Shown piece after piece: positions 3,645-50,760 of a stretch of DNA of 64,000 bases. The notes under the pieces were generated by a model. The model had not been told where the DNA came from. It did not search any database and saw nothing but the letters and a program-made list of their open reading frames with translations. The translations under genes were made by a program, and so were the position numbers. Every line of letters starts with the position of its first letter. Position 1 is the first letter of the stretch. Source of the stretch: Chiloscyllium plagiosum (lineage: Eukaryota); contig NC_057719.1 of assembly GCF_004010195.1 (NCBI RefSeq), positions 20,366,362 through 20,430,361 on the forward strand. Reading direction: 5' to 3'.

Positions 3645-3847
3645 AAAATGTGAGGACTGCAGATGCTGGAGAGTCAGAGTTGAAAAGTGTGGCACTGGAA
3701 AAGCACAGTAGGTCAGGCAGCATCTGAGGAAGAAGGGCTTATGCCCGAAACGCCGATCTCCTGCTCCTTGGATGCTGCCTGACCTGCTGCGCTTTTCCAG
3801 CAGCACATTTTTCAGCTCTGATCTCCAGCATCTGCAGACCTCACTTT
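3645..3847. mobile_element. Short fold-back Penelope-like terminal-repeat insertion
   Basis: Left arm gtgaggactgcagatgctgg...caggcagcatc is the inverse of the right arm; a hammerhead remnant (agggcttatgcccgaaacg) lies at the junction. Confidence 0.8.
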
Positions 3848-4629
3848 ATCCTCTCAACAAAGACTATGTCAATTTGTCTTTGATGTGGAGTTGCATGGCT
3901 CTTAAATCTCAGTTGTTGTTGATAGCTGTATACATCGGTCTTGGAATTAACTTAATTGTTCAAAATGCAAAAGATAATAAAATATGTATGTGACCCAGAC
4001 CCCTGCAACTTTTCATGACTGACAACTTGCTTTTTGATTTGTGCATGAACAGTTATCACTGTTACTTTGCAACAAATGTTGCCCACTGTGATTGACGTCA
4101 GCTGGGCAGAAAGCTGACATTTATCTGACCTGAAATAAGATTTATAGAACATAGAATGTAGAACATAGAACAATACAGCACAGAACAGGCCGTTCGGCCC
4201 ACGATGTTGTGCCAAACATTTTCCTAGCTTAGGACAATTTGTTTAGGTACTTATGTTGTTTCTGAGCCCATATATTTTTCTTAAGGCATGGTGACCAGGT
4301 CTGCTGTCAGTTCTCCAATTGGGATCTAACTAGGATTTTGTGCAGCAGCAGCATAACTACTGCATCCATATACTCCAGCCCTCCGAATAGAAAGGCCAGC
4401 ATTTGTTAGTCTTCTGGGCTAATTGCAGTGTGTTTGTGGGAGAGTGAAGGGGAAGAGGGGAATTACGGAGTAGTCTTTTTGAATGAATATGGAGATCTTG
4501 GCTGAAACCTACATGACTTCGTAAATAATAACATTTTTAATGTATTTCCAAAGTAATTTTGTATTTATTTGAAATGCATGTTGGTTATACGTGAGCTATA
4601 ATAATTATTCTCTATGTCTTGTGTTGTTT

Positions 4630-5023
4630 TATTTCCCATGGAGCATCAGAGGCTGAGGGGTAACAGTATAGAAGTTTATAAAAGCATAAGGGACATGCAT
4701 ACGATAAATAGACAAAGTCTTTTCCCTGTGTTGGGGGAGTCCAGAACTAGAGGGCATAGGTTTAGGGTGAGAGGGGAAAGATATAAAAGAGACCTAAGAG
4801 GCAATCTTTTCACTCAGAGGACGGTACTGTATGGAATGAGCTGCCAGAGGAAGTGGTGGAGGCTGGTACAATTGCAACTGGATGGGTATATGAATCGGAA
4901 GGGTTTGGAGGGATATGGGCCAGGTGCTGGCAGGTGGGATTAGATCGGGTTGGGATATCTGGTCGGCATGGATGAGTTGGACTGAAGGGTCTGTTTCCGT
5001 GCTGTACATCTCTATGACTCTAT
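4630..5023 (+). mobile_element. HER1/CR1 LINE 3' end
   Basis: RLRGNSIEVYK...SRTRGHRFRVRGERYKRDLRGNLF ORF2 C-terminus plus ctctatgactctat tail. Confidence 0.9.
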
Positions 5024-6431
5024 GTGATTTTTGAGTACTTGGAAGTGCATGATGAAACAGGCCTGAGTCAGCACAGCTTTGTTAGAAGGACATCATGCCT
5101 AACAAATCTATTAGAATTCTTTGAGGAGGTAATGAGCAAATTAGACAAAGGACTGCCAGTGGACATGATTTATTTGGATTTCCAGAGGGCCTTTGAGTCT
5201 GCGCCACATTAGAGGCTGCTAAATAAGTTAAGAGCCCATTGTGTTAGGGGCAAGGTACTGGCATAGTTAGAGCCTTGGCTGACATGCAGAAGGCAGAGAG
5301 TGGGGATAATGGGATCTTTTTCATGAATGGCAGCTGGTTAGCAATGGAGTTCCGCAAGGGTCAGTATTGGGGACACAAGCCTTGATATTGTACATTAACG
5401 ATCTGCACAAAGGAAATGAGGGCAATGTTGCAAGATTGCAGATGACACAAAGAAAAGTGGAGGGACAGGTAGTGTTGAAGAAATGGGGAGGAAGTGGCTG
5501 CAGAAGGACATGGACAGGCTAGGAGAGTGGGCAAAGAAGTGGCAAATGGAAACAATATTGGGAAGTGTGAGATTATGCACTTTGTAGGAGGAATGGAGGC
5601 ACAGATTATTTTCTAAATCGAAAAGCCTTCAGAAATCCACAGAACAAAAGGACCTGGGATCCCTCATAATGGAAACAATATTGGGAAGTGTGAGATTATG
5701 CACTTTGGTAGGAGGAATGGAGGCACAGATTATTTTCTAAATCGAAAAGCCTTCAGAAATCCACAGAACAAAAGGACCTGGGATCCCTCATTCAGGATAC
5801 TCTTCTGGTTAATATGCAGGATCAATTAGCAGTTAGAAAAGCAAATGCAATGTTATCATTCTTTTTGAGAGGGCTGGAATTAAAGAGCAAAGATATACTG
5901 TTGAGCATGTATAAGGATATGGTCAGATTGCATTTGGAATATTTTGAGCAGTTTTAGGCCCTCTATCTAAGGAAGGATGTGCTGGCATTAGAGGGGAGTC
6001 CACAGGAGATTCATGAGAACAATTCTGGGGATGAAGGGCTTATCATATGAGGAGAAGTTGACATCCGTACTTAATGGAGTTTAGAAGGACGAGAGGGAAT
6101 CTCAGTGAAACTTACATAATACTGAGAGGTCTGGACAGAGTGGAAGTAGAGAAGGTGTTTCTACTAGTAGGAGGGACTGGGAGTTGAGAGCACAGCTGCA
6201 GAGTGAAGGGGCGATCCTTTAGAACTGAGATGTGGAGGAATTTCTTCAGCCACAGGAACTCCACACTGCAGAAGACTTTGGAGGCCAAGTCATTAAGTGT
6301 ATTTTAGACAGAGATAGGTTCTTGATTAGTAATGAGATCCAGGTTATGGGGAGGAGGAAGGAGAATTGATTAAGGAACATATCAACCATGATCAAATGAC
6401 AGAGCAGGTTTGATGGACTGAATGGCCTAAA
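5024..6431 (+). mobile_element. CR1 LINE RT region to 3' end, degenerate
   Basis: SQHSFVRRTSCLTNLLEFFEEV...DMIYLDFQRAF and GVPQGSVLG motifs. Confidence 0.9.
5545..5791 (+). repeat. Tandem duplication, 2 x about 123 bp, inside CR1
   Basis: 5545-5667 and 5668-5791 are identical except for one extra G. Confidence 0.95.
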
Positions 6432-6640
6432 TAAAAATCAAAAGAACTGTGGATGCTGTAAATCAGAAACAAAAACAGCAGGTCTGGCAGCATCTGTGAA
6501 GAGAAATCAGAATTAACGTTTTTAAGTCTGATGACCCTTCCTCAGAACTGATGGTAATTAGGAAAATGTTGGTTTATATGCAGAAGATAGAGTTGGGGGG
6601 AGGGGCTAAGGAGTAAACGATAGGTTGGGATAGATGGTAC
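6432..6640 (-). mobile_element. Penelope-like 3' terminal remnant (aaagaactgtggatgctg subfamily)
   Basis: Decayed minus-strand hammerhead (ctgaggaagggtca...aaaacgttaa); related copies at 23055-23200, 36170-36255, 43105-43265 and 50862-51045. Confidence 0.65.
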
Positions 6641-10062: not shown

Positions 10063-10099
10063 ATGAAGAATTTAATTGTCTATTGTCTATTCTGACTTG

Positions 10100-10443: not shown

Positions 10444-10447
10444 TACA

Positions 10448-10840: not shown

Positions 10841-10977
10841 GCCTGCATCCTATTCACTGGATGTAAGAGCCAAAGTGATTTTCTCTTCCCCATGTTCCTA
10901 TAGCCAGACTAAGCATTCTCATTATACGTGGCAGGTAAAGCACACCTGAGCAGTGTAAGTAAATATTTTTCTACATC

Positions 10978-11184
10978 CAGGTGAAAGCGAGGACTGCAGA
11001 TGCTGGAGATTAAAGCCAAGAGTGTGGTGCTGGAAAAGCACCGTAGGTCAGGCAGCATCCGAGGAGCAGGAGAGTTGACGTTTCGGGCAAAAGCTTGATG
11101 AAGGGTTTTTGCCTGAAACGTCGACTCCCCTGCTCCTCGGATGCTGCCTGACCTGCTGCGCTTTTCCAGCAATACACTCTCGAC
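10978..11184. mobile_element. Fold-back Penelope-like mini-insertion
   Basis: Inverted arms joined inside the hammerhead; TSD attt(t/g)tctacatc at 10965-10977 and 11185-11197. Confidence 0.85.
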
Positions 11185-11607
11185 ATTTGTCTACATCTAC
11201 CCTATCGCAATCACAAATGGGTCTCTTATGTCATTTATCAGCCTTTTTTGTTCTTAAAAAAAGAGTCCCACTTGTCCTGTCTTGCCTGGTATTTATAAAG
11301 TCTCTGTACTTGACCCTGAATATCTTTTTTGAACTATTGCATCTACACCTGCATCTATATCTATATCTACCTCCACATCTGTAGGCCTCACCGTCACATG
11401 TTAAATGTCCCCATGTTAGCTTGTTAAGATGGACTATATAGCTTAGGAAATAGCAGCTGACTGAGATTTCTCCACAGGCAGTGATGAATACTTACAAGGC
11501 TGTTGTGATGCAGTGGAGAAAGTGAGGTCTGCAGATGCTGGAGATCAAAGTTGAAACTTTATTGCTGGAACAGCACAGGAGGTCAGGCAGCATCCAGGGA
11601 ACAGGAG

Positions 11608-11643
11608 ATTCGACGTTTCGGGCACAGGCCCTTCTTCAGGAAT
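11608..11643 (-). ncRNA. Minimal type-I hammerhead ribozyme
   Basis: Reverse complement AUUC-CUGAAGA-A-GGGC-CUGU-GCCC-GAAAC-GUC-GAAU has intact core boxes and stems I and II. Confidence 0.85.
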
Positions 11644-12219
11644 GAGCAGAGAGTGTTCAGCAGGAGAAGATAAAAGGTAGGGAGGAGGGACTTGGAGGAG
11701 GGGCGTTGGAAATGTGATAGGTGGAAAGAGGTCAAGGTGAGGGTGATAGGTTTGGAGTAGGATGGAGGCGGAGAGGTCAAGAAGAAGACTGCAGGTCCTC
11801 CCCTTCCTAGACCTTTCTGTTTCTATCTCAGGCGACCGAATCAACACGGACATCTACTACAAACCAACCGACTCCCACAGCTACCTGGACTACACCTCCC
11901 ATCCTGCCCCCTGTAAAAACGCCAACCCATTCTCCCAATTCCTTCGACTCCGCCGCATCTGCTCCCAAGAGGACCAGTTCCAAAAACGCACAACACAGAT
12001 GGCCTCCTTCTTCAAGGACCACAATTTCCCCCCCGACGTGGTCCCTCCAGCCCGGCACCGCTTCCTGACCTGCAGTCTTCTTCTTGACCTCTCCGCCTCC
12101 ATCCTACTCCGACCTATCACCCTCACCTTGACCTCTTTCCACCTATCACATTTCCAACGCCCCTCCTCCAAGTCCCTCCTCCCTACCTTTTATCTTCTCC
12201 TGCTGAACACTCTCTGCTC

Positions 12220-12255
12220 ATTCCTGAAGAAGGGCCTGTGCCCGAAACGTCGAAT
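12220..12255 (+). ncRNA. Minimal type-I hammerhead ribozyme
   Basis: ATTC CTGAAGA A GGGC CTGT GCCC GAAAC GTC GAAT; stem I is ATTC/GAAT, with a GUC cleavage triplet. Confidence 0.85.
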
Positions 12256-12312
12256 CTCCTGTTCCCTGGATGCTGCCTGACTTCCTGTGCTGTTCCAGCA
12301 ATAAAGTTTCAA

Positions 12313-12390
12313 CTGTTGTGATGCAGTGGCCACCCCCAGATTGGGAGACCCCAGTTCGAGATCCACCTGCTCCAGAGGTGTGTAATAACA
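12313..12390 (+). mobile_element. Short tRNA-like SINE family C (target of the PLE insertion)
   Basis: tgttgtgatgcagtgg (A-box-like) ... gttcgaga (B-box-like) ... ctccagaggtgtgtaataaca; paralogue at 1838-1926. Confidence 0.55.
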
Positions 12391-14230: not shown

Positions 14231-14244
14231 ATGACTAACCTTCT

Positions 14245-15792: not shown

Positions 15793-17080
15793 TGGCAATT
15801 GGCTGAGTTGGATTTGTCCTGTTTTTATTTTGTTTGCATGATAAACCTGAGCAATTTTCCAGAACATAGGACATGTCAGTCTTTTAAATGACTTACTTTC
15901 ATATAGCTTTACCACAACAATAAATACTATTTGCTGTTTAGGATGCAATAACATTCCAATTCTTATAAAATTGCTTATTGTTTGACCTACAATGAGCAGT
16001 GTCAGGAAGTTCATAATTTACAGAGTAATATAATTTATGAAGTCATCTATTGAAAAGTACTAAACACAAGGCATTACTAGAAGTCTGTTTTACATAATCA
16101 AGCCATGATCATTTGGTGTATATCACATATCTTAAATGTAATAGCATTGCTATTTGTTGCATTTGTAAAGGTTTTTTGTAGAGTCCCTGAAGTTGTCAAA
16201 TTGATGTTACAAATGATGTAGCCAGTCAAATGTCAAATACTGAACCCAGTCTGTCAATACAAGAGAAAAAAAAGACTTGTGTTGGAGAGGGTAGCCATGT
16301 GATTAGGATGAGAAGGAGATTGAATTAGTTCAGAATCAGTGTACGTTATAGTAACATTTCAACGTTTACAAAGCAGCATTAAAATCCATGATCTGAAATC
16401 AGAAAATCATTTTTGTTTTCAAGGTTTTTTTATTTTTATTTTAATTCATTCATCTAGACGAGCTCTCAAATCTCCAATTTTCTCATCTGATTGCTTCCCA
16501 AATGATGCCATGAAGTTTGCTTCCATCACCTTGCTTTGAAACATTTTGCAAGCTCCAAGCATCAATGTGTCCTCTAATTTCCCTTCACAGCATGTGGCAC
16601 AGTTGGTGTACTGCATGACCCCTTTAAGATAGTTGTGTGGCTGCCTCCTTGCACACTTTAAAGAACTGCTGCTTGCTCATATTATTTTGGACCAGTCTAT
16701 GTTAATTTTTAGGTTGCTGCGGAGCCTGAACAGCAAGTATGGAACTTTGTAGGTTGTTAATTATATATTAAGTATATTTAATTTACACAAATTGCACACA
16801 TCAACTGAGAATTTTCTGTATGCCATCTAAAAGTTTGCAAGTTAGGTTAGGAGAAGTATGTTCGTAACATGTATGTCTGTGAATTAATATAAAAACCTGC
16901 AAAGAATACAAAACTAGGAGGAGTCAGCATTCCAGCCCCTCAAGCCTGCTCCCATTCCATTCGATCATGGCTGATCTCATAAAAACTGAGCTTTTCCAGC
17001 AATTTCAATTTTTGTCAGTTTATGACTGATCTCATCTGGGCCTCAACCTCACCTTCCTGCCTTCTCTCCATAGTCCTTCA

Positions 17081-17267
17081 TTCTGGATTAGTGGTGCTGG
17101 AAAAGCACAGCAGTTCAGACAGCATCCGAGGAGCAGTAAAATCGACATTTCAGGCAAAAGCCCTTCATCAGGAATACATGCCTCGGATGCTGTCTGAACT
17201 GCTGTGCTTTTCCAGCACCACTAATCCAGAATCTGGTTTCCAGCATCTGCAGTCATTGTTTTTACCT
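17081..17267. mobile_element. Fold-back PLE mini-insertion A
   Basis: Inverted arms; TSD t(c/t)tccatagtccttca at 17065-17080 and 17268-17283. Confidence 0.85.
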
Positions 17268-17309: not shown

Positions 17310-17549
17310 GGAGAAAGTGAGGACTGCAGATGCTGGAGATTAGAGCTGAAAATGTGTTGCTTGAAAAGCGCAGCAGGTCAGGCAGCATCCAGGGAACAGG
17401 AGAATCGATGTTTCGGGCATGAGCCCTTCTTCAGGAATTCATGTATTCCTGATGAAGGGTTTTTGCACGAAACATTGATTTTACTGCTCCTCGGATGCTG
17501 TCTGAACTGCTGTGCTTTTCTAGCACCACTAATCCAGAATGAAGGACTA
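17310..17549. mobile_element. Chimeric fold-back PLE mini-insertion B
   Basis: The left arm is from a different subfamily; the right arm 17440-17549 is an inverted copy of 17071-17180; tagatcaaaaat flanks both sides. Confidence 0.85.
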
Positions 17550-20122
17550 GATCAAAAATTTGTCTACCTAATTCTGAAATGTCCCAGCAATGCACGCTGG
17601 GGTTTTGAATTCCACAGATCCACAACTCTTCGAAAGAAGAAATTTCTCTTCACCTTTGTTTTAAATTTGCAACCCCTTATCCTAAAACAATGACCTTTCA
17701 TTTGAGATTGCCCCATGTCAGGAAAGACCCTCTCTACATCTACTTTGTCAATCCCCTTTTGCATATTATATACCTCAATTAGATCTCCTCTCGTTAGTCA
17801 TAGTCATAGAGATCTCCAGCCCTTCGAGCCACTAAGTCTGCACCACTCAAAAACAACTGCCTAACTTGTCTAATCCAATTTTTCAGCACTTTCTCAAGAG
17901 CCTTGTATGGTTCAGCATCACAACACCTCTTAAATTTTATTGGGTTTCTGCTTCTACCACCTTTATAGACAGTGAGTTCCAGATTCCCACCTCCCTCAGG
18001 GTGAAAATGATTCTCCTCTCATCTCCTTATGTGCGTTGAACCTATGCCGTGCGGTCATTCATTTCTCCAACAACAGGAAACATTTCTTCCTGTCTGCTAT
18101 GTCTATGCTCTTCATAATACTACACAATCAAGTCCCCCTCTGTCTCCTCTGTTCCAATGAGAAACAACCACAGTCTATCCATCTGTAAAACTCTTCAGTC
18201 CTGAAAAATCCTGATAAATATTTTCTGTCCTCTCTCCAGTGTAATGACATCTCTCCTGTAATGCAGATTACATAACTACATGTAATGGTATCATTGTGAT
18301 ATAACCTTCCTGCTCTTAAACTCCATGCCTAGTCTAATTTAGGCAATCTCTACCTCTTCTGCTACCTTAAGGGACCAGCGGAAAACCTCACAGTTATCCA
18401 CAGTAAACTCCCAAAATTGTGAACTCAAAGATCGGTTCCACTTTTATCCTTCACTTTCAGGAATACAATGCTGATCACTCTTTACTTAACGAAACTCTTG
18501 ATAATCAATCATAGTCATATCTTCAGTTTAGACATGTGTCCTCTGCTCATCCACCCATAATTTAAATTGTAAGTATTCAAGGTTAGCCTTTTCTGTATTG
18601 TGCATTTCATATATATTATAATATACTCATCACATATTCACCTTCAATTACTTCTTTCCAAGCTGACAATCCCAAATAGCAGATTTTCAATCTGTTGTCT
18701 TACCATAAACCTGACATTATGGTTTGATGATCTATTACAAACCTGCATTCTTTTTATTTACATTGAAATCTAGCCTTTCGAGACTTTGCTGTATTTTTAG
18801 CCAGTAACAATCTATCTTGCCCATACAGCTTTCCATGCACTGGATAACCAGAAATGGTCCCAGTATTCAAGGCTGGTCTGATCAATTACATCTTCAGTCA
18901 ACCATCTTCAAAGCATGCACCCCAGTTGCCAAAGTAAATCTTCTGGAAATGAAGACTTGTTAAGAATTGTGAGACCTTGCCATGGCGATACATTGCAATG
19001 CAGAAAAGCATACATAGCACAGTGGTTATGTCTGGGACATGACAAAGAGAAGACACAAGTCAAACAGAGACACGATGGCATATTTGTGAATATACAGTTG
19101 ATGCGATATCCAAATGTCTTGAAATGTATCGTGCCATAGCTAGAATAGTATCTGCATTAGAAATGTTCTTTTACTCTGATTACTAATTAATCCATTAGAC
19201 TTCATTACAATAAGGAATATTATTGATTACATTATTATTAAAATGTGTTTCTGCCGGTTAAATATTGTGACAATACTTTGGCTTTCAGGTTATATTTTGT
19301 CATTTTTCTTATGAGAGGACGCTGGAGCAGAGGTGCTGAACAGTCTGTTCTAGAATAATAAAAGCTTGTGAGGGCTTAGGGTTTCTTTAAGTCTGAACAA
19401 AGACTGGAGGCCTGTGACCAGTGGTGCGCCACAAAGGTCGGTGCTGGGTCCACTACTTTATGTTATTTATATAAATGATTTGGATGTGAACATAAGACGT
19501 ATAGTTAGTAAGTTTACAGATGACACCAAAATTGGAGGTGTAATGGACAGCGAAGAAAGTTACCCCAGATTACAACACGATCTTGATCAGATGGAACAAT
19601 GGGATGAGAAGTGGCAGATGGAGTTTAATCTAGATAAATGTGAGATGCTGCATTTTTGGAAAGCAAATCTTACCAGGACTTATATACTTAATGGTAAGGT
19701 CTTAGGGAGTGTTGCTCAACAAAGAGACCTTGAAGTGTAGGTTCATAGTTCCTTGAAAGTGGAGTTGAAGATAGATAGGATAGAAGAAGGTATTTGGTAT
19801 GCTTTCCATTATTGGTCAGAGTATTCAGTACACAGGTAGGGAGGTCATGTTGCAGCTGAATAGGACAATGGTTCGGCCACTGTTGGAATATTTCGTGCAA
19901 TTCTGGTCTCCTTCCCATCGGAAAGATGTGGTGAAACTTGAAAGAGTTCAGAAAAAAATTACAAGAATGTTGCCAGGGTTGGAGGATTTGAGCTACAGGG
20001 AGATGTTGAGGAAGCTGTGGCAGTTTTCCCTAGAGTATCAGAGACTGAGGAGTGACCTTATAGAGGTTTATAAAATCATGAGGGGCATGGATAGGATATA
20101 TGTGGGTGGGGAGTCCAGAACT

Positions 20123-20336
20123 GTCCAGAACACATCGACCTGGACCCAATATACCAACCACTACAGCGGACAGCTGAAACTGACAACCGGAAGCGGCAGG
20201 GACAGACCACTATAAACACCAGAGGAAACATCAAAGAAGCGTTTCGCAGGAGGCTCCCAAGCACTGATGATGTCGCCTAGCCAGGGGACGAAACGTTTGC
20301 AACAAAAACTTCCAGCTCGGCGAACAGAACCACAAC
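20123..20336 (+). mobile_element. Second Penelope family, 3' end, with TSD
   Basis: HIDLDPIYQPL C-terminal peptide; 11-bp TSD agtccagaact at 20112-20122 and 20337-20347. Confidence 0.85.
20261..20300 (+). ncRNA. Minimal hammerhead ribozyme (second PLE family)
   Basis: GCA CTGATGA T GTCGCC TAGCCA GGGGAC GAAAC GTT TGC; stem I is GCA/TGC. Confidence 0.8.
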
Positions 20337-26125: not shown

Positions 26126-26267
26126 ATCTAACTTAAAAAGTTACTCTGTTTCCCCTTGCCACAGATGCTGCCAGAGCTGCTGAGCTTCTCTAGTTTCTGT
26201 TTTTATTTCAGATTTCCAGCATCCACAATACTTTCCTTTATCGTTTAGTTCAGATTACTCCATAATA

Positions 26268-28107: not shown

Positions 28108-28760
28108 GACTTTTTCTTTATTCTTTACACAAATATAATGGATAGGTAAATTTGAAATCCTAGTTGATACATTGTATTGCTTGGGAGATCATTTATCCCA
28201 ATTTATTGAGGCAATTCACAAATATAAATATTTGGGCAAGACATTTCTTCCATTTCACTGTGCAGGAAGCATAGTGTCTTTTTATAAGCAAGTGGAATAT
28301 CCATATACCACTTTAAGTTTAATAATCTTTTAATGGCTTTGGGAAGCCTAACAGATTGGAATTTGTAAGTTATGGAGTCACAGAGTCATACAACACATAA
28401 ACAGACAAGTTGCAAAAGGAATATGAACAAAACTGTCTCATTCACTCAAGATAGTTTTTCTAGAGAAAGCATTTAGGATGCTGGTTGTATTTAGGATAAT
28501 GGGGAACATCTCATGTGTCACATTCTATGGCAAGTATAAAACAATTAATCCTGTCAATGTCCACAGACTGTTGAAGCAAATTGTCTCAGCATTACCATCT
28601 CTAATTAAAAATAGCTTGGGCTTGCAATGAACCAAGGAGTATTGAAAGTGAGTTCTTGGTGATCTTAACAAAGGTCAGTTATCCATGTACTTGAACATAA
28701 ATGGAGCTACAGTTTGAGGAAAACATACATTTCATGATAACTGAATTTCACGTGCAAGGC

Positions 28761-28893
28761 GAAAATGAGGACTGCGGATGCTGGAGATCAGAGTCTAGAT
28801 TAGAGTCAGGAAAAGGGCTTTTCCCGAAATGTTGATTTTCCTGCTCCTCAGATGCTGCCTGACCTTCTGTGCTTTTCCAGCACCACTCTAGTC
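28761..28893. mobile_element. Fold-back PLE mini-insertion
   Basis: Short antisense arm joined to a sense arm that starts in the hammerhead remnant. Confidence 0.75.
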
Positions 28894-29293
28894 TGGCCAA
28901 CTCTAAATATGTAACTTGTAAGAAGACAGTGAGTGTGCACCAAACACTTCAGTTCAAACATACCCAGCTATGCTTCCCTCTGAACACCTTCTCCATTGCA
29001 AATTGAGATTGGAATGGAGCTCCTGAAACAATTCCCAAACTAAATAATTTGCTTGCCGCAGTAAAGCAAAATCTATCAACAAGACTTGTGGCAGAAGAAT
29101 TGGATGGAACCAATTTATTTGCCTTGAAAAAAAAACCCAGCAGCACCAGGTGTTAATAAACCAGAATTATAGAAGCAACAGCAATTAAACAGACTGCTAA
29201 AAAGGGAACTTCAAAATTCCAGAACATACCAGTGTTGCAATTGGCTGAGCAGATTTAAAGGAGCAGGTGAGAAAATGACGTATTCAGTTTGGA

Positions 29294-29435
29294 GGTAAAA
29301 ACAATGACTGCAGATGCTGGAAACCAGATAATATTCTTGATTTATTCCTGATGAAGGGCTTTTGCCCGATACGTCGATTTCGCTGCTCCTTGGATGCTGC
29401 CTGAACTGCTGTGCTCTTCCAGCACCACTAATCCA
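29294..29435. mobile_element. Fold-back PLE mini-insertion
   Basis: 14-bp TSD gtattcagtttgga at 29280-29293 and 29436-29449; hammerhead with GAAA mutated to GATA. Confidence 0.85.
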
Positions 29436-31657
29436 GTATTCAGTTTGGAACCAATTTATAAAGTACAATGCAATTAAGAGTTTTAGTAAAATTCATGATC
29501 TCATGTTGAAGTCTTCAAAATGATGATTGCATTTTCTATCTCTGAATATGGCTCCCTGAGTTAGTTGTATTAGTGTACGCAATTAGTCAGAACTGCAAAT
29601 TCCTATTCACCTATAAATAGCCACAGATTGAAACTGCTGTTGCTGGGTTTGGAGATCGATATTTATCATGTACATGCCTGTAAATAAATGCTTACAAAGA
29701 GTGTGAGGATTACCTCTGGATCGGGGTCTGGGTGGGTTACTATTCGGAGAACTTGTTGGGCCGAAGGGCCTGTTCCCACACACTGTAGGAATTCTAATTA
29801 TGTAGGAACTCTAACTCTAATTCTATCCTTAACCATCAACCTTTCAGGATTATTGCACCTTGAAATTCATGGCCCTACTAGTTGAACCCAATGATGTGCA
29901 TTTGAATTATGCAAAGGTGTTTTCTCATGACCTGATGTTGAGAAAGGATTTGAAAAATGTCAATTGTTAGCTCTCGAAAAGCTTAGAAATCTTTCTCTGC
30001 TTTCCACGATTGCCCATTTGACCTTTAAAAATCAAAGAACAATCTGACAAAACACCATAAACATTGCGTTTCCGTAAAGAGATCTTGGTGTAAATTCTTT
30101 TGATATGTAGGCAAAACAATTTTAGAGCCTTCCATCTGCCATTGATGCTGTCACTGACACACTCTCTGTACTTACCACATGGAAGATAATGCCATACCTT
30201 GTCTTGAATTGAGCTGGATTCCCATCGCTGCAGATTACATCCTTGCTGCCCAGTTTTTTTTTGTCTTCCTACAGGAATGGAACAGAAATGAGAATGTTCT
30301 CTACTTGGGCTGCTTTCAACTAAGTTAGCTGAACTTCTCCAGCATCAGGATTTGAATTGAAATTACAGAATAACAGGCTTTCCAATCCATTACACGCTGG
30401 CATTTCGCCTCCTGAAAGAGAAATGTCCACCACCTCACTGCCACCTGCTCCAGACCCACCAATGTAGGCGTCAACACACTTTCGGCATCATCTTTTTGCT
30501 GCCGGACACCACCTCACTGATGCCACAATCCCATACTCACCCCACAACCATCAGCTCTGCTGAAGTCACCGTCTCACCGATAACCAGAAGTCCCCATTCC
30601 GGGCCTACTTTGACTGCAACCAGGAGTCCCTGGCTCCACTGCTATCTTGATGATGCCAGAATTCCCTGCTCTGGATCCACTGGAACCAGGGGTCCCTGGC
30701 TCCACTGCCAGGCCAGACCACTGCTGCACCAAGAGTCCCGCTTCGGCTGAAAGATAGCTGTTCTCATCTTCTTCCTTGCTGCAGAGAATGTCTGCCTGTC
30801 AAATAGTTAAATGATATTTACCTTGTTTTTTAAAATAGTTGACAAACTAGATGATGAAATTTCCCACACCTTTGCGATGTACACTTTTCACATCATGCTA
30901 GAGTTTTCCAAATGCTGTAGCAACCTCACTTTCTCTCCAATAAACAGCATGTTTATTTTTCTCCTAGGGTTAACAATATTTGCAGGGTTTGTGAATGTTT
31001 TCACAAGGTGATCACAATGTCAAGTCGTGTCTTATCTGGCCTCCAACATTTTGGGGCTGTTGTGTGGCATAACCTCTACCCTGAGTTGTCACTGTGGTCA
31101 CATGATGAGCTTACAAAAGTTCAGTTCACCTACAGTTACTAGTTACAGAATTTTAGTTTATTGTGAGCAATAATCCATTGGATTTGTTTTCCTGCTGATG
31201 GGAATGGCTGACAATTTTCACACGAGCTTGTCTTCATTGCTCAGAGCATTGATGTCACTTTGTGGCTGTGCAGAACATTGGTGCGGCCACGTTTGGAGTA
31301 CTGCGTAGAGTCCTGGTCACCCTGTTATAGGAAAGACATTATTAAATTGGAGAGGGTTCAGGAAAGATTTACCAAGATGCAAGCAGGACTGGAGGGTTTG
31401 AGTTATGAGGAAAGGCTAGATTGGCTGGGAATTTTTCACTGGAGCATAGGAGGTTGAGGCGTAACCTACAGAGATTTATAAAATCATAAGGACCATAGAT
31501 AATGCGAATAGCAAAGATTTTTTTCCCTCGGGTGTGTGATTTCAAAACTAGGAGGAATATTTTTAAGGTGAGAGGAGAAAGATTTAAAAGTCACCAGAGA
31601 GGCAACTTTTTCACACGGAGGTGTTCCGTGTGTAGAATGAACACTCAGAGGAAATAG

Positions 31658-31847
31658 ATGGAAATGTGTTGCTGGAAAAGCGCAGCAGGTCAGGCAGCAT
31701 CTAGGGAACAGGAGAATCGACGTTTCGGGCATTAGCCATGCCCGAAACGTCGATTCTCCTGTTCCCTAGATGCTGCCTGACCTGCTGCGCTTTTCCAGCA
31801 ACACATTTCCATCTCTGATCTCCAGCATCTGCAGACCTCACTTTCTC
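31658..31847. mobile_element. Perfect-hairpin PLE mini-insertion
   Basis: 77-bp perfect inverted repeat (31656-31732, 31738-31814); 16-bp TSD cactcagaggaaatag at 31642-31657 and 31848-31863. Confidence 0.95.
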
Positions 31848-31878
31848 CACTCAGAGGAAATAGCACAGTTACAACATT

Positions 31879-33160: not shown

Positions 33161-33442
33161 GGAGAAAGTGAGGACTGCAGATGCTGGAGATCAGAGCTGA
33201 AAATGTGTTGCTGGAAAAGCGCAGCAGATCAGGCAGTATCCAAGGAACAGGAGAATCAACGTTTCGGGCATAAGCCCTTCTTCAGGAATGAGGAAAGTGT
33301 GTCCAGCAGGCTAAGATAAAAGGTAGGGAGGAGGGACTTGGGGGAGAGGTGTTGGAAGGAGATGACCTGGGGTGTGCAGTGAGAGAGGGACTCACTGAAA
33401 TCCTTGTAGAGGGAGGCTTGCAAGGATGCCTTCCTTGAAGAA
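33161..33442 (-). mobile_element. Penelope-like terminal repeat with intact hammerhead core
   Basis: Reverse complement CATTC CTGAAGA AGGGCTTATGCCC GAAAC GTT GATT at about 33255-33290. Confidence 0.88.
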
Positions 33443-33790: not shown

Positions 33791-34131
33791 TATTTATAAA
33801 ACGTATGAAACATGTTACGTATTCATTACACTGTAACTTTATGAAATGGCTCAGAATGCTCCAAGAACCAACTAACATACTTTTTTTTAGTTGTTTATAA
33901 GGAAAGATGAGGAAATTGGCATTTGATCTTTTGAGGATCATTAAGATCACCAATTACTCTTATTCACCTCGATCTCATGAGCATGTCAACGACTGTACCT
34001 CAGTAGCCTTAATCTAATTTATCAAGAATATATCTTGAGTGCAAATCCAGGAAACCTGTACTATCCTACATCATTGGCTCTTACTCTGACATATTCAAAT
34101 GTATTTTGCAAACAAGCAGATTAAAGATGAC

Positions 34132-34335
34132 AGTCGAGAGTGCGTTGCTGGGAAAGCACAGCAGGCCAGGCAGCATCCGAGGAGCAGGAGAATCGATGTT
34201 TCGGGATTCCTTATGAAGGGCTTATACCTGAAATGTCAATTCTCCTGCTCCTTGGATGCTACCTGACCTGCTGTGCTTTCCCAGAGACGCACTCTCGACT
34301 CCGATCTCCAGTATCTGCAGTCCTTACTTTCTCCC
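34132..34335. mobile_element. Fold-back PLE mini-insertion
   Basis: Inverted arms meeting at tttcgg|gattccttatgaaggg (hammerhead). Confidence 0.85.
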
Positions 34336-36879: not shown

Positions 36880-39510
36880 ACAGGGCAGGAGGATTTGAGC
36901 TATAGGGAAAGGCTGAATAGGCTGGGGTTGTTTTCCTTGGAGCGTTGGAGGCTGAGGGCCAACCTTATTGAGGGGCATGGAAAGGGTGAATTTCCCATGG
37001 CAGAGGACTCCAAAACGAAAAGGCACAGGTTTGAAGTGAGAGAGGAAAGATTTTAAAGGGACCTAAGAGGCAACTTTTGCAAGCAGAGGGTGGTGTGTTA
37101 ATAGAATAAGCTACCAGAGGGAGTGGTGGAGACTGGAACAATTACAACTGTTAAAAGGCATCTGAATTGGTACATGAATTAGGAAGGGTTTAGAAAGAAA
37201 TGGATAAAAAGATAGGTGGAGGGGCAAGTAGTATTGGGGAGGCGGGGAGGCTGCAGAAAGATTTGGATAGGTTAGGAGCAAATAAGTGGCAGATGAAATA
37301 CAACATGAGAAAGTGTGAGGACATGCATTTTGGTAGGTAGAATAGAGGCAGGGACAATTTTCTAAATGAGGAGAGAATTTAGAAATCTGAAGTGCAAAGT
37401 AACTTTGAAGTTCTAGCTCAGATTTCTCTTAAGGTAAACTTGCAAGTTGAGTCAATAGTTTGGAAGGCAAACACAATGGTGTCATACACCTCAAGAGGAC
37501 TAGAATATAAAGCAGCGATGTACTCCGAATGTTTTATAAGGCTCTAGTTAAACCACATTTAGAGTATGAGCAGAAAGTGAGGACTACAGTTGCTAGAGAT
37601 CAGGGTCAAGGGTGTGGTGCTGGAAAAGCACAACAGGTCAGGCAGCATTCAAGGAGCAGGAGAATCAACGTTTCGGGCATAAGCCCTTCATCAGGAATGA
37701 GCCTTGTGTGCCAAGGTGGTAGAAAGTTAAATGGGAGGGGGTTGCCCTGGGGGGAAAGGTAGTTGAGAGTGCAATAGGTAGATGGAGGTAGGAGCAATAG
37801 TGATAGGTCGGTAAGAAGGGTGGAGTGGATGGGTGGAAAGGAAGATGGACAGATAGGACTGGTCATGAGGGCAGTGCCAACTTAAAAGGTTGGATCTGTA
37901 ATAAGGCGGGGTGGGGAAATAAGGAAACTGGTGAAGCCCACATTAATCCTGTGTGGTTCGTGGGTCTCATGGTGGAAGATGAGGTGTTCCTCCTCCAGGC
38001 GTCAGGTGGTTGGAGTTTGGGAATGGAGGAGTCCCAGCATGTCCTTGGCAGAGTGGGAGGGGGAGTTAAAGTGTTTGGCCATGGGACAGTGGGTTGCTTT
38101 GTGTGTGTGTTCAGGAGATGTGCTCTGAAGCATTCTGCAAGTAGGCGTCCTATCTCCCCAATGTAGAGGAGACCACATTGGGAGCAGTGGATACAATAAA
38201 TGACACGTGTGGAAGTGCGGGTAAACTTGATGGATGTGGAAGGCTTTTTTTGGGACCTTTGGACAGAGGTGGGAGGAGACGTGTGGTTGCAGGTTTTAAA
38301 ATTCTTGTGGTGGCAGGAGAAGGGGCCGTGAGAGGAAGGTGGGTAGGTGGGAGGCGTGCACCTGACAAGAGAGTAGTGGAGGGAATGGTCTTTACAGAAT
38401 GCAGATAGGGTTTGGGAGGGAAATATATCTCTGGAAGTGGGGTCCGTTGTAGGTGATGGAAATGGCAGATGATTACACGATGTATGGTGGAGTGGAAGGT
38501 GAGAACCGGGGGTTCTATCCTTGTTGCATTTGGAGGGGTGGGGTTCGAGGGCGGAGGTGCGGGAAATAGATGTGATGCACTGGAGGGCCTCATTGACCAT
38601 GTGGGAGGGGAAATTGTGGTCTTTGAAGAAAGAGGCCACCTGGTATGTTCTGTGGGTGAACTGGTCCTCCTGGGAGCAGGTGCAGCGGAGGCGGAGGGAT
38701 TGGGAATATGGGATAGCGTTTTCACAGGAGGCAGGGTGGGAGGAGGTGTAGTCCAGGTAGTTGTGCGAGTCAGTGGGTTTGTAGAAAATGTCCGTGTTGA
38801 GTCGTACACCGTTGATGGTGATGAAGAGGTCCAGGAAAGGGAAGGAGGTGTCCGAGACGGTCCAGGTATGATGAGCAATTTTGGACCTCATGCATCAGGA
38901 AGGATGTACTGACCCTGGAGTGGGTCCAGGAATGGTTCATGAGAATGATCCCAGGAATGAAAGGCTTAACATATGAGGAATGTTTGAGTATTCTGGGACT
39001 ATACCCAATGGAGTTTAGAAGGATGAGGGGGGATTGAAATGTACAGAATACTGAATGGCCTGGACAGAGTGGACATTAGGAAGAAGTTTCCATTAGCAGG
39101 ACCGACAAGGACCTGAGAGTACAGCCTTAGAGTAAAGGGAAGACCCTTTTGAATGGAGATAAGGAGACATTTCTTCAGTCAGAGAGCAGTGAATCTGTGG
39201 AATTCATTACTATAGAAGGCTGTGGAGGCCAGGTCATTCAGTATATTTAAAACAGTAAAAGATAATTTTTTGATGGCCAAGGGGATCAAAGGTTACGGGG
39301 AATAAGTGAAAAAATGGGGTTGAGAAACCTACCAGCCATGACTGAATGGCAGAGTAGACTTGACGGGCCAAATGGCCTAATTTCTGCCCCTACGTCTTAT
39401 GGCCTTCTGGTCATATGTGCCAAATGCTGGCAAATGGGACTAGATTAATTTAGAACATTAATGGACAAGTTGGACCGAAAGGTCCGTTTCCGTGCTGTAC
39501 AACTCCATGA
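36880..39510 (+). mobile_element. Consecutive CR1 fragments; the older one is split by a PLE
   Basis: EDLSYRERLNRLGLFSLE; FYKALVKPHLEY resumes as gagcaattttggacc at 38873. Confidence 0.85.
37573..38866 (-). mobile_element. Penelope-like element, RT C-terminus plus GIY-YIG plus terminal repeat
   Basis: PFLDLFITING.RLNTDIFYKPTDSHNYLDY and VIYCIHCSQCGLLYIGE; intact hammerhead core at about 37664-37699; atgagca duplicated at the ends. Confidence 0.95.
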
Positions 39511-43696: not shown

Positions 43697-44649
43697 GATC
43701 ATGAATACAGTGAGGTGGAGGTAATTGTCAAGTTGGTTATGTCCTGCTTTTAAAGGAAAGGATAGAGCTGTGAAATTTTACACATCGTCAGTTATCTGCT
43801 GATGTTGTCATTGATCTGAACATCTCTAGACTTGAGTTATATCTGAAGCATAAGTTTTCAGAACCCCCTATTGGAATATATAAACTTTGGTGTGTTCAAT
43901 GGATACAACTATTTCTTGACATCATGTGGAGTGAACAGATTGAGCTGAAGAATGGTATTTGTGAAAGCTAGGCCCTCAGGAAGACGAATCCAAAAGGGTT
44001 CCTTTACATAGCACTGTTGGCTGAAAGTGGCTGCAATTGCTTCTGTCCTTGTCTTTTTCATTGAAGGTAAGTTACCATTCTTTAAAATGGGTATATTCAT
44101 GAAGCTTATATATCCATGATTACTGACCTTTAAAAGATTGCATCCCCTCTCCATGCCACGGGAATATCTGGTACCAGACACTAGACCAAAACAAATTCAC
44201 CAAGAATGTGTTTATAAAGTCATAAGGTCAAAAAAGAAATATGTTTTCGTATTCATGGATATTCTTATAAGTAATTGGATGTCCTCCCATACTATTATCC
44301 CATGTAAAAAAAAAAGAAAATATTGAACCATCTCTCACTGAATGTATTTTCAAAACATACTTTAGTAACAATATAAAATATAATGATCAGCAGCCTTTAG
44401 TGATGACTATAATCCTTCAGGTATAATTAATAAGGTCTCAGTCAATTCCCACATTTCACGAGGATGGTGTAGAGTTATGTTTACACTATGACCAAAGCAT
44501 TGATGCAAAGCACTTTTACTTTGTATTCCAAAAATCCATTTTCAGTTTGGCCCATGATTCTTAAAATCATGCTACAGTTTTATCTGTGTTGTATAGTAAG
44601 TATAACATGGCTGTTGTTTTAGTATGAGATTTAAAAAAAACCCTGCATA

Positions 44650-45145
44650 CGTTGGGATCCAAGATAGAGAAGCAGGAGGCTGGAAGAACACAACAAACCA
44701 GGCAGCATCAGGAGATGGAGAAGTCAACGTTTCAGGTGTAACCCCTCTTCAGGACTGGGGATGGATGCAAGGGGAGCGACAGACAATAGGTGAGGTTGGG
44801 GTGATGAGGTAGGGATAGATGGATATAGGTAGAGGGTATGACCTGGTTGGTCAATGGGAGGAATGAATCCGGTTGGTGGCTGAAAGGAAGGGTCAATGAA
44901 AGGAATGAAAGGGAGGGGGAGGGTCTGGGAAGGGAGTCGGGGGATGAGAAGGGAGGTTATTTTAAATTGGAGAACTCAATGTTGAATCCTTTGGGTTGGA
45001 GTCTGTCCCGGCGGAAGATAAGGTGTTGTTCCTTCAATTTGCAGTCTGATTCGCTGTGGCAATGGAGGGGGCCAAGGATGGTCATGTCAGAAAGGGAATG
45101 GGAAGGGGATTAAAGTTGGTGTGACTGGGAGGTCAGGTCGGCCCC
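44650..45145 (-). mobile_element. Penelope-like 3' fragment (further subfamily)
   Basis: Minus strand EQHLIFRRDRLQPKGFNIEFSNL; hammerhead at the 3' end. Confidence 0.8.
44722..44756 (-). ncRNA. Minimal hammerhead ribozyme
   Basis: Reverse complement AGTC CTGAAGA G GGGT TAC ACCT GAAAC GTT GACT; stem I is AGTC/GACT. Confidence 0.75.
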
Positions 45146-45617: not shown

Positions 45618-47080
45618 TGAGGGTGGTAAGGACAAGTCAGGGAACTATAGACCAGTGAGCCTGACGTTGGTAGTGGGCAAGTTGTTGGAGGGAATCATAA
45701 GGGACAGAATATATATATATATTTGGAAAGGCAAGGACTGATTGTGCATGGGAAATCATGTCTCACAAACTTGTTTGAATTTTTTGAAGAAGTAACAAAG
45801 AGGATTGATTCGGGGAGAATGGTAGATGTGATCTATATGAACTTCAATAAGGCGTTTGACAAGGTTCCCCATGGGAGACTGGTTAGCAAGGTTAGATCTC
45901 ATGGAATACAGGGAGAGCTAATCATTTGGATACAGAACTGGCTCAAAGATAGAAGACAGAGGGCGGTGGTGGAGGGTTGTTTTTCAGACTGGAGTCCTTT
46001 GACCAGTGGAGTGCCACAAGGATTGGTGTTGGGTCCACTACTTTTCATCATTTATATAAATGATTTGGATGTGAGCATAAGAGGTACAGTTAGTAAGTTT
46101 GTAAATGACACCAAAATTGGAGGTGTAGTGAACAGTGAAGAAGGTTACCTCAGATTACAACGTGATCTTGATCAGATGAGCCAATGGGTTGAGGAATGGC
46201 AGATGGAGTTTAATTTAGATAAATGTGAGGTGCAGCATTTTGGGAAAGCTAATCTTAGCAGGACTTATACACTTTTTGGTAAGGTCCTGGGGAGTGTTGC
46301 TGAACAAAGAGACCTTGGAGTGCAGGTTCATAGCTCCTTGAAAGTGGAGTGACAGGTAGGCATGATAATGAAAAAGGTATGTTTTTCTTTATTGGTCAGA
46401 GCATTGAGTACAGGAGTTGGGAGGTCATGTTGCAGCTGTACAGGACATTGTTACGGCCACTGTTGGAATATTGTGTGCAATTCTGGTCTCCTTCCTATTG
46501 GAAGGATGTTGTGAAACCTGAAAAGATCTAGATTAGATTAGATTAGATTACTTACAGTGTGGAAACAGGCCCTTTGGCCCAACAAGTCCACACCGCCCCG
46601 CCGAAGCGCAACCCACCCATACCCCTACATTTACCCCTTACCTAACACTACGGGCAATTTAGCATGGCCAATTCACCTGANNNAGGCTGAGGGGTGACCT
46701 TATAGAAGTTTACAAAATTATGAGGGGCATGGATAGGATAAATAGACAAAGTCTCTTCTCTGAGGTGGGGAAGTCCAGAACTAGAGGGCATAGGTTTAGG
46801 GTGACAGAGGAAAGATATAACAGACCTAAGGGGCAACGTTTTCACGCAGAGGGTGGTACATGCATGGAATAAGCTGCCAGAGGAAGTGTTGGAGGCTGGT
46901 ACAACTGCAACATTTAAAAGGCATCTGGATGGGTACATGAATAGGAAGGATTTGGTGGGATATGGACCAGGTGCTGGCAGGTAAGACTAGATTGGGTTGG
47001 GATATCCGGTCGGCATGGATAAGTTGGACCAAAGGGTTTGTTTACATGTTGTACATCTCTATGACTCTATGTCTCTATGT
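45618..47080 (+). mobile_element. HER1/CR1 RT to 3' end, interrupted by HE1 and a 3-N gap
   Basis: GNYRPVSLT, SCLTNLFEFFEEVT, GVPQGLVLGPLLF, SKFVNDTKIGG. Confidence 0.95.
46529..46680 (-). mobile_element. Young HE1-like SINE 3' part with (tagat)n tail
   Basis: CpG-rich reverse complement of the 34905-35070 type; runs into NNN. Confidence 0.85.
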
Positions 47081-48489: not shown

Positions 48490-48800
48490 CAAAGTTTCAG
48501 AGACATGAGTATAAACATCGAGGCTGACATTAAGTATTGAGGGAGTGCTGCTGTTGAAGGTGTTGCTATGGATGAACTGTTAAACCAAGATTGTGTATGG
48601 TCTCTAAAATGGATATAAAAATCTCACAACTGCTTAAGAGAGGCAAACTTAACTCTGGTGTTCTGAACAAACATTATCCCTTAATCAATATCTTAAAAAC
48701 AGATTATCTAGTCATTATCACAGAACAACTATTCATAAAGTGGTTGGAGATGTTCTGAGGTTGTGAAAGGCAACATACATGTTCAAATTATTTATTTATT
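48490..48800 (+). mobile_element. DeuSINE (SacSINE1-like)
   Basis: gagggagtgctgc...ggatga...ttaaacc...ggatataaaaatc...acagattatctagtcattatcaca...gaggttgtgaaagg. Confidence 0.7.
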
Positions 48801-48849
48801 TCATTTCCTTTACTGTGACCGAATAGATCAGGAGAGTAGTTAAGAAGAT

Positions 48850-50760
48850 ATGCAATGTCCAAGCTTTATTGATAGGGCCTCAGATAGATAGCAAGGACGT
48901 TCTGTTGAAATTGCATAACAGTGGTTCAGCCTCAGGTGGGATTATTATGTTCAGTATCAGCACCAGGTGCCACATTTTAAGAAAGATGTGAAGTTATTTA
49001 AAACAGTGCAAGAAAAAAAGCTAATGGAATGGTTTCAGGCTTCAGGAACATCAGTTAGGAAGTTGGACTGGAGAATCAAGGACAATTTCCATTGAAGGCT
49101 AAGAGGATATTTAATTGAGACATAGAAAATCATCAAAGGTTTTGAAAAGAGTCGACAGAGAAACTATCCCACTCATGAAGGATGAAAAATCATAGATCAC
49201 AGGTTTAAAATAATTGGTAAAAGAAGCAAAAGAAATATGAAGAAATCATCGTCACTACAGTGTGATTAACATCTAGATTGTGCAGCCCGGTAGAGGTAGG
49301 TGCAATTAAATTTTTCAAAACAGGGAATAAACTGCTATTAGAAAAGGAAGAATGCACAGCATTATGGTGAGAAGACAGTGGAATAGCATTAAGTAGATTA
49401 TTTGTTCGGAGAGCTCAGGCAGACCCAATGAACTGAATGGCCCTCGCCTGCACTGTAACAATTCTCTAATTCCGTGTGTGTATCACACAAGCCTAAAAAA
49501 TGAATGGGAAGATCCAGCTGCTACTTAACATGATTAAAAGTGATAGGAGACTAGGTACAACGGGAAACAGTCAAGAGTGTGGTGCTGGAAAAGCTCAGCA
49601 GGTCAGGCAGCATCCGAGGAGCAGGAAAATCGACATTTCGGGCAAAAGCCCTTCTTCAGTCAATTTTCCTGCTCCTCAAATGCTGCCTGACCAGCATCAC
49701 ACTCTTAACGCTAATCTCGAGCATCTGCAATACACACTTTCACCACAACAGGAAACAGGACTGGTAATAGAAGCATTGTTATAAATGAAACATTTTCAGA
49801 TTGGTGTGATCATTGAATGAAACAAAATGGTGCGCAGTGCTGGAGTCTCAATCACTCACAATTCAACTCAAATGGTTTGACTGTAAAGACAGAATATATG
49901 ATAGTTACATTCCCTGATGATGTATAGATGGGTAGGAAATTACCTTGTGAAGAGGGCACAAATCTGCAAAAGCACATGGGCAGGTTAAGTGAGTGGCAAA
50001 AAATCTGGCAGATGGAGTATAATTTCAAAAATGTGAGTTTGTCCACTTTGGCAGGAATAATGGAAAAGCAGCATAGGACCTAAGTGGAGAGAGTTTAGAA
50101 CTCAGAGGTACAGAGGGATTTGGGTGTCCTGGTATATGAATCATAAAAAGTTAATTCACAGCAAAAGCAAAATATGAGAATGCTATGATATTGCTGTTTA
50201 AGATGATGATCAGACCACATCTGGAGCACTGTGTACAGTTATGGCCTCCTTTATGTAAGAAAAGGTTTAAGATTCTGATGAGCTTTCAGAGAAGATTCAA
50301 TTGATTGATGGGAGTAGGTTATTTCATGAGGTAAGGATGGACAGATTGCATCTTTATCCATTGGCATTTAGAAGCATGATAGGAAATTTTGATGAAACAT
50401 GAGAGAGCTTAAGTCGTTTTGACAAACTGGATGTTGAAAGAATGTTTTCTCTTATGAAAGGAGCTTGAACTAAGGGACAGTTTACAAATAAAAGATTTCC
50501 CATTTAAGGTGGAGACAAGGATAATGTTTTTCTCTCAGTGGATGTTGCGTTTTTAGACCATTCTTCCCCAGAAACCAGTGCAGACAGGGTCACTGAATAT
50601 TCTTATGACAGACATTGAAAACTCTCTTGACTAAGAAGGGATCAAAGGATAGGTAGGATTGTGGATTGAGACCATAATCAGATCAACCATGATCTACTGA
50701 AAGAGGGATAGAGCTTCAAGGATAGAGTGACCGACTCTTGCTTCTAATTTTTATGTACAT
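48850..50760 (+). mobile_element. Two old CR1 3' fragments (48850-49470, 49800-50760) with a PLE fold-back at 49570-49733
   Basis: Decayed WQMEYN and RPHLEHCVQLW motifs; inverted PLE arms. Confidence 0.7.

Follow-up and report, generated by a model that had tools for sequence, protein, structure and literature searches.

Arm ends of short head-to-head Penelope-like insertions in Chiloscyllium plagiosum cluster at the 5' edge of a predicted hammerhead ribozyme rather than at its cut site

Insertions of endonuclease-containing (EN+) Penelope-like elements (PLEs) carry an inverted, 5'-truncated pseudo-long terminal repeat (pLTR) plus an optional tail of 30-40 bp (PMC8557442), and their palindromes have been ascribed to self-priming on an antisense template (PMC3846280). 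The layout of inverted pLTR, one-sided tail and target-site duplication (TSD) is already published (PMC8557442, PMC3846280). In Schistosoma, hammerhead ribozymes are found as opposite-strand pairs 100-700 bp apart (PMC4209133). The same study proposed cleavage and circles as the replication route. With the Poseidon element of Anolis carolinensis (PAc), both strands were cut and extended in vitro, from two internal starts of reverse transcription that bound the tail, and a dimer is predicted; uncleaved RNA was the main template, and hammerhead mutants were without effect on insertion (PMC11167929). The stretch considered here, called the window, is 64,000 nt of the genome of Chiloscyllium plagiosum (contig NC_057719.1, positions 20,366,362 to 20,430,361), and contains nine short insertions made of two inverted copies of a PLE terminal repeat. 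In these, and in a sample of the genome, arm ends cluster at the 5' edge of the hammerhead ribozyme carried by the repeat.

Positions in the repeat are numbered from the predicted hammerhead cut (GUC^), +1 being the first base 3' of GUC. Stem I has its 5' strand (AUUC) at -32 to -29, and the CUGANGA core begins at -28. The 3' ends of arms are of two types, a short one at about +62 and a long one at +97 to +100, and the difference is a 35-nt PLE tail. The loci of the window were found by self-comparison of the window, followed by reading of each locus. An earlier note on this DNA had listed mini-insertions consisting of inverted terminal-repeat arms; all nine are head-to-head, with an antisense arm and then a sense arm of a common PLE terminal repeat, 137-231 bp in total. 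The exception in detail is the right arm at 17310.

3643..3851: head-to-head pair, left arm +12..+98, right arm -26..+97, a tail on each arm (as in three of the 74 pairs described below), 2-nt overlap, no TSD found
10980..11184: head-to-head pair, left arm -18..+98 (tail), right arm -27..+63, TSD of 13 bp
17080..17266: head-to-head pair of subfamily E, left arm -38..+64, right arm +13..+98 (tail), TSD of 16 bp
17310..17549: chimeric pair with arms mapped over 17310-17540, left arm of subfamily B at -32..+97 plus a few bases, TSD of 12-14 bp
28758..28894: head-to-head pair, left arm +52..+100 (tail), right arm -22..+61, 6-nt insert, no TSD found
29294..29439: head-to-head pair, left arm +63..+98 (tail only), right arm -33..+64, 13-nt insert, TSD of 14 bp
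31656..31848: head-to-head pair of the young subfamily B, left arm -19..+63, right arm -14..+97 (tail), blunt junction, TSD of 16 bp
34125..34334: head-to-head pair, left arm -11..+71, right arm -32..+98 (tail) with a G in front, no TSD found
49569..49744: head-to-head pair, left arm -28..+64, right arm -3..+98 (tail, internal deletion), 1-nt overlap, TSD of 14 bp

The TSDs of 13-16 bp that had been claimed for several loci were found at six of the nine, and none was found at 3643, 28758 and 34125. For most loci an arm ending in or beside the hammerhead had been claimed, and all nine have at least one end within -40 to +4 (in locus order, -26; -18/-27; -38; -32/-35; -22; -33; -19/-14; -11/-32; -28/-3). 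The sense arm at 49659 does start at the GUC triplet, at -3, but a cleavage product would start at +1, 3 nt downstream. At 17310 the right arm does not mirror the left arm of the same insertion (subfamily E versus B). It is an inverted copy of the left arm of the neighbouring 17080 locus (subfamily E; 17071-17181), extended by some 10 nt that flank that locus. The source of this second arm would have been either a transcript reading through the neighbour or DNA at the site.

For counts, arms were mapped onto five subfamily references derived from a sample of 175 stretches of 10 kb at even spacing (1,696,520 non-N bases, 1.70 Mb), to which the window was added. The genome is 3.56 Gb in size. 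Loci L101-L115, which had been picked by protein match, were excluded from the counts. Arms with less than 80% identity, a score below 50 or a 3' end before +45 were excluded, so that 320 terminal arms, 32 of them censored, were kept from 504 arm hits. Pairs with N, proximity to a locus edge, a gap above 25 or a non-terminal arm were also excluded, which left 74 of 96 as clean pairs, nine of them from the window. Adjacent arm pairs among the 504 hits were head-to-head in 96 cases, tail-to-tail in one and on the same strand in 35. A TSD was found in 50 of the 74 clean pairs versus 2 of 74 with swapped flanks. Outside the window there are 60 mini pairs, or about 35 per Mb and some 1.3e5 per genome by estimate. 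Longer PLE copies (L111, L112, L114, L115) are often interrupted by assembly gaps of several kb, and the counts of long arms are therefore probably too low.

The arm 5' ends are strongly clustered. Positions -40 to -18 hold 151 of the 320 ends, against a mean of 29.5 and a maximum of 52 in 20,000 simulations of a fitted constant-hazard null, and any constant hazard gives at most 34. An enrichment of junctions at the hammerhead had been proposed for this family, and the sample and window bear it out. Of the 232 arms that reach -18, 151 stop by -40. The end hazard per nt is 0.002-0.007 from +60 to -17 (0.0064 at +4 to -7), then 0.027 at -18 to -27, 0.085 at -28 to -33, 0.035 at -34 to -40 and 0.0007 at -41 to -60, with about 0.003 beyond; the profile is the same when the window is left out. 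The modal end of paired arms is -32 (14 ends), where stem I of the hammerhead begins. Arm ends thus accumulate at the ribozyme's 5' edge and not at its cut site, and this edge is likely to be the 5' end of the RNA.

Neither uniform ends nor ends explained by truncation length were found. Arm lengths differ between tailed and tail-less arms (medians 123 versus 90.5 nt, Kolmogorov-Smirnov (KS) p 5e-23), yet their 5' end positions agree (medians -26 versus -29, KS p 0.55), and thus truncation length is not the cause of the clustering. The hazard at -28 to -33 is 0.084 for tailed arms, 0.085 for tail-less arms and 0.064 for unpaired arms. An artefact of reference divergence upstream of -33 was ruled out for paired arms, which abut the partner arm. 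Among unpaired hotspot ends, a scored check flagged 0 of 57 as divergent long arms, and about five are suspect by eye.

If ribozyme cleavage made the template end, and hence the turn-point, the arm at 49659 that begins at -3 and a possible small excess at +1 would be in keeping with it. Genome-wide matches with a purine before +1 number 1,177 and those with a purine before -1 number 656, but the second motif needs an intact CpG, so that the excess at +1 is small at most. However, only two of 148 junction ends lie at +1 and six at -2 to +3, compared to 87 at -40 to -18, and foreign bases before -32 number 17,743, which come from a different motif and can be set against the +1 counts only roughly. 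Inactive hammerhead mutants also left insertion unchanged in vitro (PMC11167929). Cleavage is refuted as the main cause, and is extremely improbable as an explanation of the turn-point. Thus, where the earlier note had the ribozyme set the turn-point, the position-fixed clustering at the hammerhead region stands, but cleavage as its main cause is not supported (hazard 0.0064 at +4 to -7 versus 0.085 at -28 to -33).

The two arms of a pair differ in a consistent way. One arm is tailed in 66 of the 74 pairs, both in three and neither in three, with two pairs unclassed. Chance alone would give 36 one-tail pairs (p 4e-14), and the tail is found in either polarity. The 5' ends of paired arms are uncorrelated (rho 0.00), and in the 66 one-tail pairs the tailed arm extends further 5' than its partner in 23, less far in 41 and equally far in two. 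These observations bear on a fold-back or self-priming origin, in which the second arm is copied from the first, by snap-back of the cDNA or by antisense-RNA priming as proposed for Adineta PLEs. This model is published (PMC3846280), and arms of the same locus do share more non-consensus variants (0.024 per site) than arms from different loci of the same subfamily (0.008), although two RNAs transcribed from a single source locus would lead to such sharing too. In 41 of the 66 pairs, however, the tailed arm is the one that reaches less far and cannot be a copy of its partner, since a tail absent from the template cannot appear in a fold-back copy; it is the shorter-reaching arm in 19 of 32 insert-free junctions as well. 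Eight of these 32 would require a loop of less than 3 nt, and the 17310 pair joins two subfamilies. At least 11 loop-less palindromic junctions are present among 100 genome-wide matches listed, as would be seen if both cDNAs stopped at -32 and then paired through AT. Fold-back, which the earlier note had favoured, is largely refuted for the majority of pairs and very improbable as the general origin, and the hairpin junctions argue against the antisense self-priming model (PMC3846280).

Microhomology of at least 2 nt is seen in 17 of the 32 insert-free junctions versus 16% expected, and short inserts are present at 42 of the 74 junctions. Of 20 junction inserts of at least 5 nt, eight match nearby sequence over at least 7 nt, versus 18% in shuffles, which is no more than suggestive of templating from nearby sequence. 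Two junctions recur three times each in the 74 pairs, -31/-26 (in two subfamily calls) and -29/-19, and -30/-32 is found in four of the 30 loci with an extra G considered below; most junctions are unique. A microhomology trap could account for part of this, if two longer cDNAs annealed through self-complementary words in the 5' half of the hammerhead (TTC/GAA, CC/GG, AT) and were then trimmed. The microhomology, the recurrent junctions and the predominance of C or T before -31 (see below) are compatible with such a trap. However, unpaired arms joined to unrelated target DNA share the hotspot (hazard 0.064), the junctions with inserts have no overlap, and the trap accounts for the fine structure of the hotspot and not for its position. 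As the cause of the hotspot it appears quite improbable.

Recurrence could also suggest that hairpins are a self-propagating non-autonomous family, SINE (short interspersed nuclear element)- or retrozyme-like, that is copied in units, and a mobile class of non-coding hairpins had been put forward earlier. Some identical junctions do recur, but among their copies either arm may be the tailed one and more than one subfamily is represented, which indicates that there is no mobile subfamily. In addition, the stubs lack the promoter motif at -63 to -65, unpaired arms end at the same place as paired ones, and the units are dispersed and head-to-head, not in head-to-tail tandem. A mobile family thus has almost no chance of being the explanation, and recurrent junctions are favoured joins formed repeatedly.

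The parent of these arms can be traced through longer copies, which extend upstream into a broken open reading frame (ORF) in which the reverse transcriptase (RT) motifs GVAMG and YIDD are followed by the thumb and then by IY..YIGE. Three further features of the window are relevant.

37574..38894, minus strand: degraded 3' part of the parent PLE ORF, with RT thumb, CxxC linker and GIY-YIG, followed by the terminal repeat
33161..33357, minus strand: single subfamily-B arm used for reference, -100..+97, with tail at 33161-33195, hammerhead at 33289-33254, predicted cut at 33258/33257, proposed RNA start at 33289 and TTTATCT about 31 nt upstream of the start
11515..12314: head-to-head layout in a long version, subfamily A, with a tailed antisense arm (-185..+97) that meets a sense piece ending at +63

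The ORF part at 37574..38894 runs into the terminal repeat, and thereby ties the arms to a probable EN+ PLE. The sense piece of 11515..12314 holds an ORF remnant and an internal deletion, and a TSD is visible at both sides. The nearest Atlas clusters for the parent ORF carry HTH_animal and GIY-YIG (score 0.96), a Pfam search returned no families for the three ORF pieces, and neither an intact ORF nor an intact full-length element was recovered among the element copies examined. A CRNCKTC-type (CxxC) motif is present between RT and GIY-YIG. A Zn-finger-like motif between RT and endonuclease is a feature of the Neptune clade, common to Nematis (PMC8557442). Judged by its sequence, the parent appears to be an EN+ PLE, Neptune-like by its CxxC linker.

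The hammerhead core, stem I and stem II are present in all five subfamily references and fit the minimal hammerhead of PLE terminal repeats, and an Rfam scan of the window gave no match at gathering score. Cofolding of two hammerhead copies, which is no test of activity, gave a stem III dimer in subfamily B alone of the five. In the five references the stretch past the cut (+19 to +85) folds into a long stem around a hairpin that is conserved. Subfamilies A, D and E have a second hairpin whose sequence varies while its pairing is kept, and the short 3' end (about +62) lies in or beside its loop, which recalls the AC-rich stem-loop start of PAc. Reads of 33161-33357 (run X23) carry many A>G and T>C differences, which could stem from either hairpin-RNA editing or differences between copies.

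The base in front of -32 bears on the nature of the edge. In the genome-wide CUGAAGA set this base is G in 10,476 cases, A in 5,197, T in 2,070 and the native C in 48,338. G therefore makes up 59% of foreign bases before -32, compared to 14% one base downstream and 26% one base upstream; the G content of the sample is about 21%. Before -31, C or T prevails. All 30 G loci that were fetched (the first 30 on contig C1, two of them near duplicates) are true ends at -32, and by eye the G is untemplated in six, matches the target in seven and agrees with the partner arm in 10, with seven loci left unclear. For L1 and SVA an untemplated 5' G has been taken as a copy of the cap (PMC4859970). A TTTATCT motif is present 31-33 nt upstream of A(-32) in all five subfamily references; TTTAT(C/T) is found in 35 of 48 long copies, with column conservation of at least 90% while the spacer varies. 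PLE promoters reside in the terminal repeat (PMC2377424), and an Adineta pLTR has a TATA plus an initiator (PMC3846280). From the modal end, the excess of G, the spacing of the TATA-like motif and the existence of pLTR promoters, we infer that the RNA starts at A(-32).

Several points weigh against this start. The G excess is less marked in the older CUGAUGA set (G 5,005 versus A 4,169, with G one base downstream at 2,272), and the small unbiased sample is without evident G excess (G 7, A 5, T 5, C 1; n=18). In 17 of the 30 G loci the G could have been read from the target or the partner, and seven of the 30 belong to two recurrent partner junctions for which no cap is needed. Of the 151 hotspot ends, 21 lie at -34 to -40, upstream of the proposed start, so that the start would be ragged or another stop would act. 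The TATA-like motif is non-canonical, the initiator fit at -32 depends on a general consensus, and the proposed start is deduced from DNA ends. With no intact full-length element among the copies examined, the 5' repeat of the transcript is a predicted one. A single-cell poly(A) run gave 1,903 and 932 reads with no pile-up of molecule starts, which speaks neither for nor against the start site, and the drop of depth at -32 in these data simply mirrors the genomic copies; a second run yielded no reads on the repeat.

The edge might instead be set by the hammerhead structure, through a stall of the RT or through trimming by a 5'-to-3' nuclease up to the folded or protein-bound ribozyme, with the G arising from a C added by terminal transferase at a blunt run-off. 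Stem I begins exactly at -32 in each of the five subfamilies, the 21 ends at -34 to -40 would suit a ragged stop, and the weak G excess in older subfamilies is also in line with it. However, for an RT moving 3' to 5' the first structured positions are +4 and -8, and the hazard there is no higher than background (0.006), stem I is only 3-4 bp, and the conserved TATA-like motif stands at promoter spacing. It seems unlikely that structure sets the edge in this way, although ribozyme structure may have a part in placing it.

Two other candidates for the sequence around -32 were rejected. The sequence at the spacing expected for a downstream promoter element does not fit the consensus of that element. 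A splice acceptor like that of D. virilis (PMC4209133) is ruled out, since -32 is not preceded by AG in any subfamily. Among loci L221-L235, seven of the 15 with A before -32 have G next upstream, as if an extra A stood behind the cap in some RNAs, or as from a junction with the partner arm.

The mini-hairpins are TSD-flanked, head-to-head PLE ends, one of them with the 35-nt tail, that probably arise by priming on both strands, run-off at a capped and uncut RNA 5' end, and joining. Transcription would start at A(-32), about 31 nt behind the TATA-like motif, and the RNA would begin with the hammerhead. The target would be cut with a stagger of 13-18 nt, and both nicked strands would prime reverse transcription near the RNA 5' end, one at about +97 and the other at about +62. 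Priming in the 5' terminal repeat of the RNA would leave 95-130 nt to copy and give strong-stop-like cDNAs; priming at the 3' repeat would give long arms. Each copy would extend to the 5' end of the capped, uncleaved RNA, where the hammerhead begins, and run off there. After trimming of no more than about 15 nt from their 3' ends, the two cDNAs would be joined via 1-3-nt microhomology or short inserts. As both arms span the same 95-130 nt, two RNAs or two passes would be needed. Two-strand priming with one start site each is the simplest model, given the one-tail asymmetry, the junction features and the in vitro data for PAc. The products are predicted to be dead on arrival and not transcribed on their own, because the upstream promoter motif (-63 to -65) is absent from the stubs, and the hairpin insertions themselves are probably inert.

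A wider scheme can be offered only tentatively. As the RNA would start with the hammerhead, cleavage might shed a 32-nt capped leader, and so act as a self-decapping switch that directs RNAs either to decay or to translation or retrotransposition. The PLE protein, as a dimer, might always prime the two strands at different sites, and the roughly 100,000 hairpins might be fossils of twin strong-stop cDNAs, an intermediate for both inverted and direct pLTRs.

These results touch on how inverted and direct terminal repeats of PLEs are formed and on the role of the hammerhead, which are open questions (PMC8557442, PMC2377424, PMC4209133). The junctions yield testable answers at the level of single bases, namely a predicted start at the first base of the ribozyme, uncleaved RNA in vivo and one start of reverse transcription per strand. 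The predicted use of an uncleaved template agrees with the in vitro result for PAc (PMC11167929). Two-strand priming would also explain about 35 near-perfect hairpins per Mb, which would form double-stranded RNA if read through. A literature search, outside of which most subscription papers fell, found no report of a PLE start at the hammerhead, of a cap G or of a two-strand origin of the inverted arm.

Other repeats of the window include relatives of the terminal repeat, 72-90% alike, at 44643-44760 (minus strand), 6475, 26159, 36182, 43216 and 50869-51031; these old copies probably represent an older PLE family. Another hammerhead-like motif (CUGAUGA ... GAAAC), whose stem II is longer, lies in an unrelated repeat at 20264 of the window (plus strand) and at locus L114:1349 (minus strand), and this repeat is probably another PLE family. 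Degraded ORFs at 19372-20215, 25750-26127, 45651-46352 and 53099-59611 resemble RT of the CR1 type of long interspersed nuclear elements. In the sample, L073:2134-2711 is a mini tandem in which an inverted arm precedes two terminal repeats, these being separated by about 135 nt of element sequence from downstream of the first; it resembles a retrozyme-like unit.

Minus-strand strong-stop DNA of LTR elements is an analogue of the short cDNAs proposed here, but no strand transfer is implied in the present case. In L1 twin priming the two pieces are different parts of one RNA, whereas both arms here cover the same 95-130 nt. L1 likewise has priming by two target strands and inversion of a 5' piece, and its full-length 5' end carries an additional G (PMC4859970). 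The closest layout is that of published EN+ PLE units, which have the same head-to-head arm, tail at one end, TSD, microhomology at the junction and pLTR promoter (PMC8557442, PMC3846280, PMC2377424). The insertions in C. plagiosum differ from them in being mostly two end pieces alone, and in their fixed 5' edge at the hammerhead and excess of G. PAc is like the C. plagiosum element in that both strands are cut and extended, with two internal starts, a pLTR hammerhead and an uncleaved template, but the present element has the Neptune-like CxxC linker, as against Poseidon for PAc. The transcription start, inverted junctions and one start site per strand per insertion are not described in the available part of that study (PMC11167929). 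With the minimal type I hammerheads of metazoan PLE pLTRs (PMC4209133) the present ribozyme shares CUGANGA, a bulged A, a G-C-rich stem II, GAAAC-GUC, a short stem I, palindromic 15.2-16.2 and the lack of a stem III loop, and differs in its stem II of 4 bp and stem I of 3-4 bp. Unlike the cleavage and circle route proposed there, the hairpin insertions record an uncleaved template. Animal non-LTR retrozymes (bioRxiv 10.64898/2026.07.22.740005) are also short, hammerhead-bearing and derived from PLE terminal repeats; however, they are self-amplifying head-to-tail tandems, whereas the hairpins here are dispersed, head-to-head single events.

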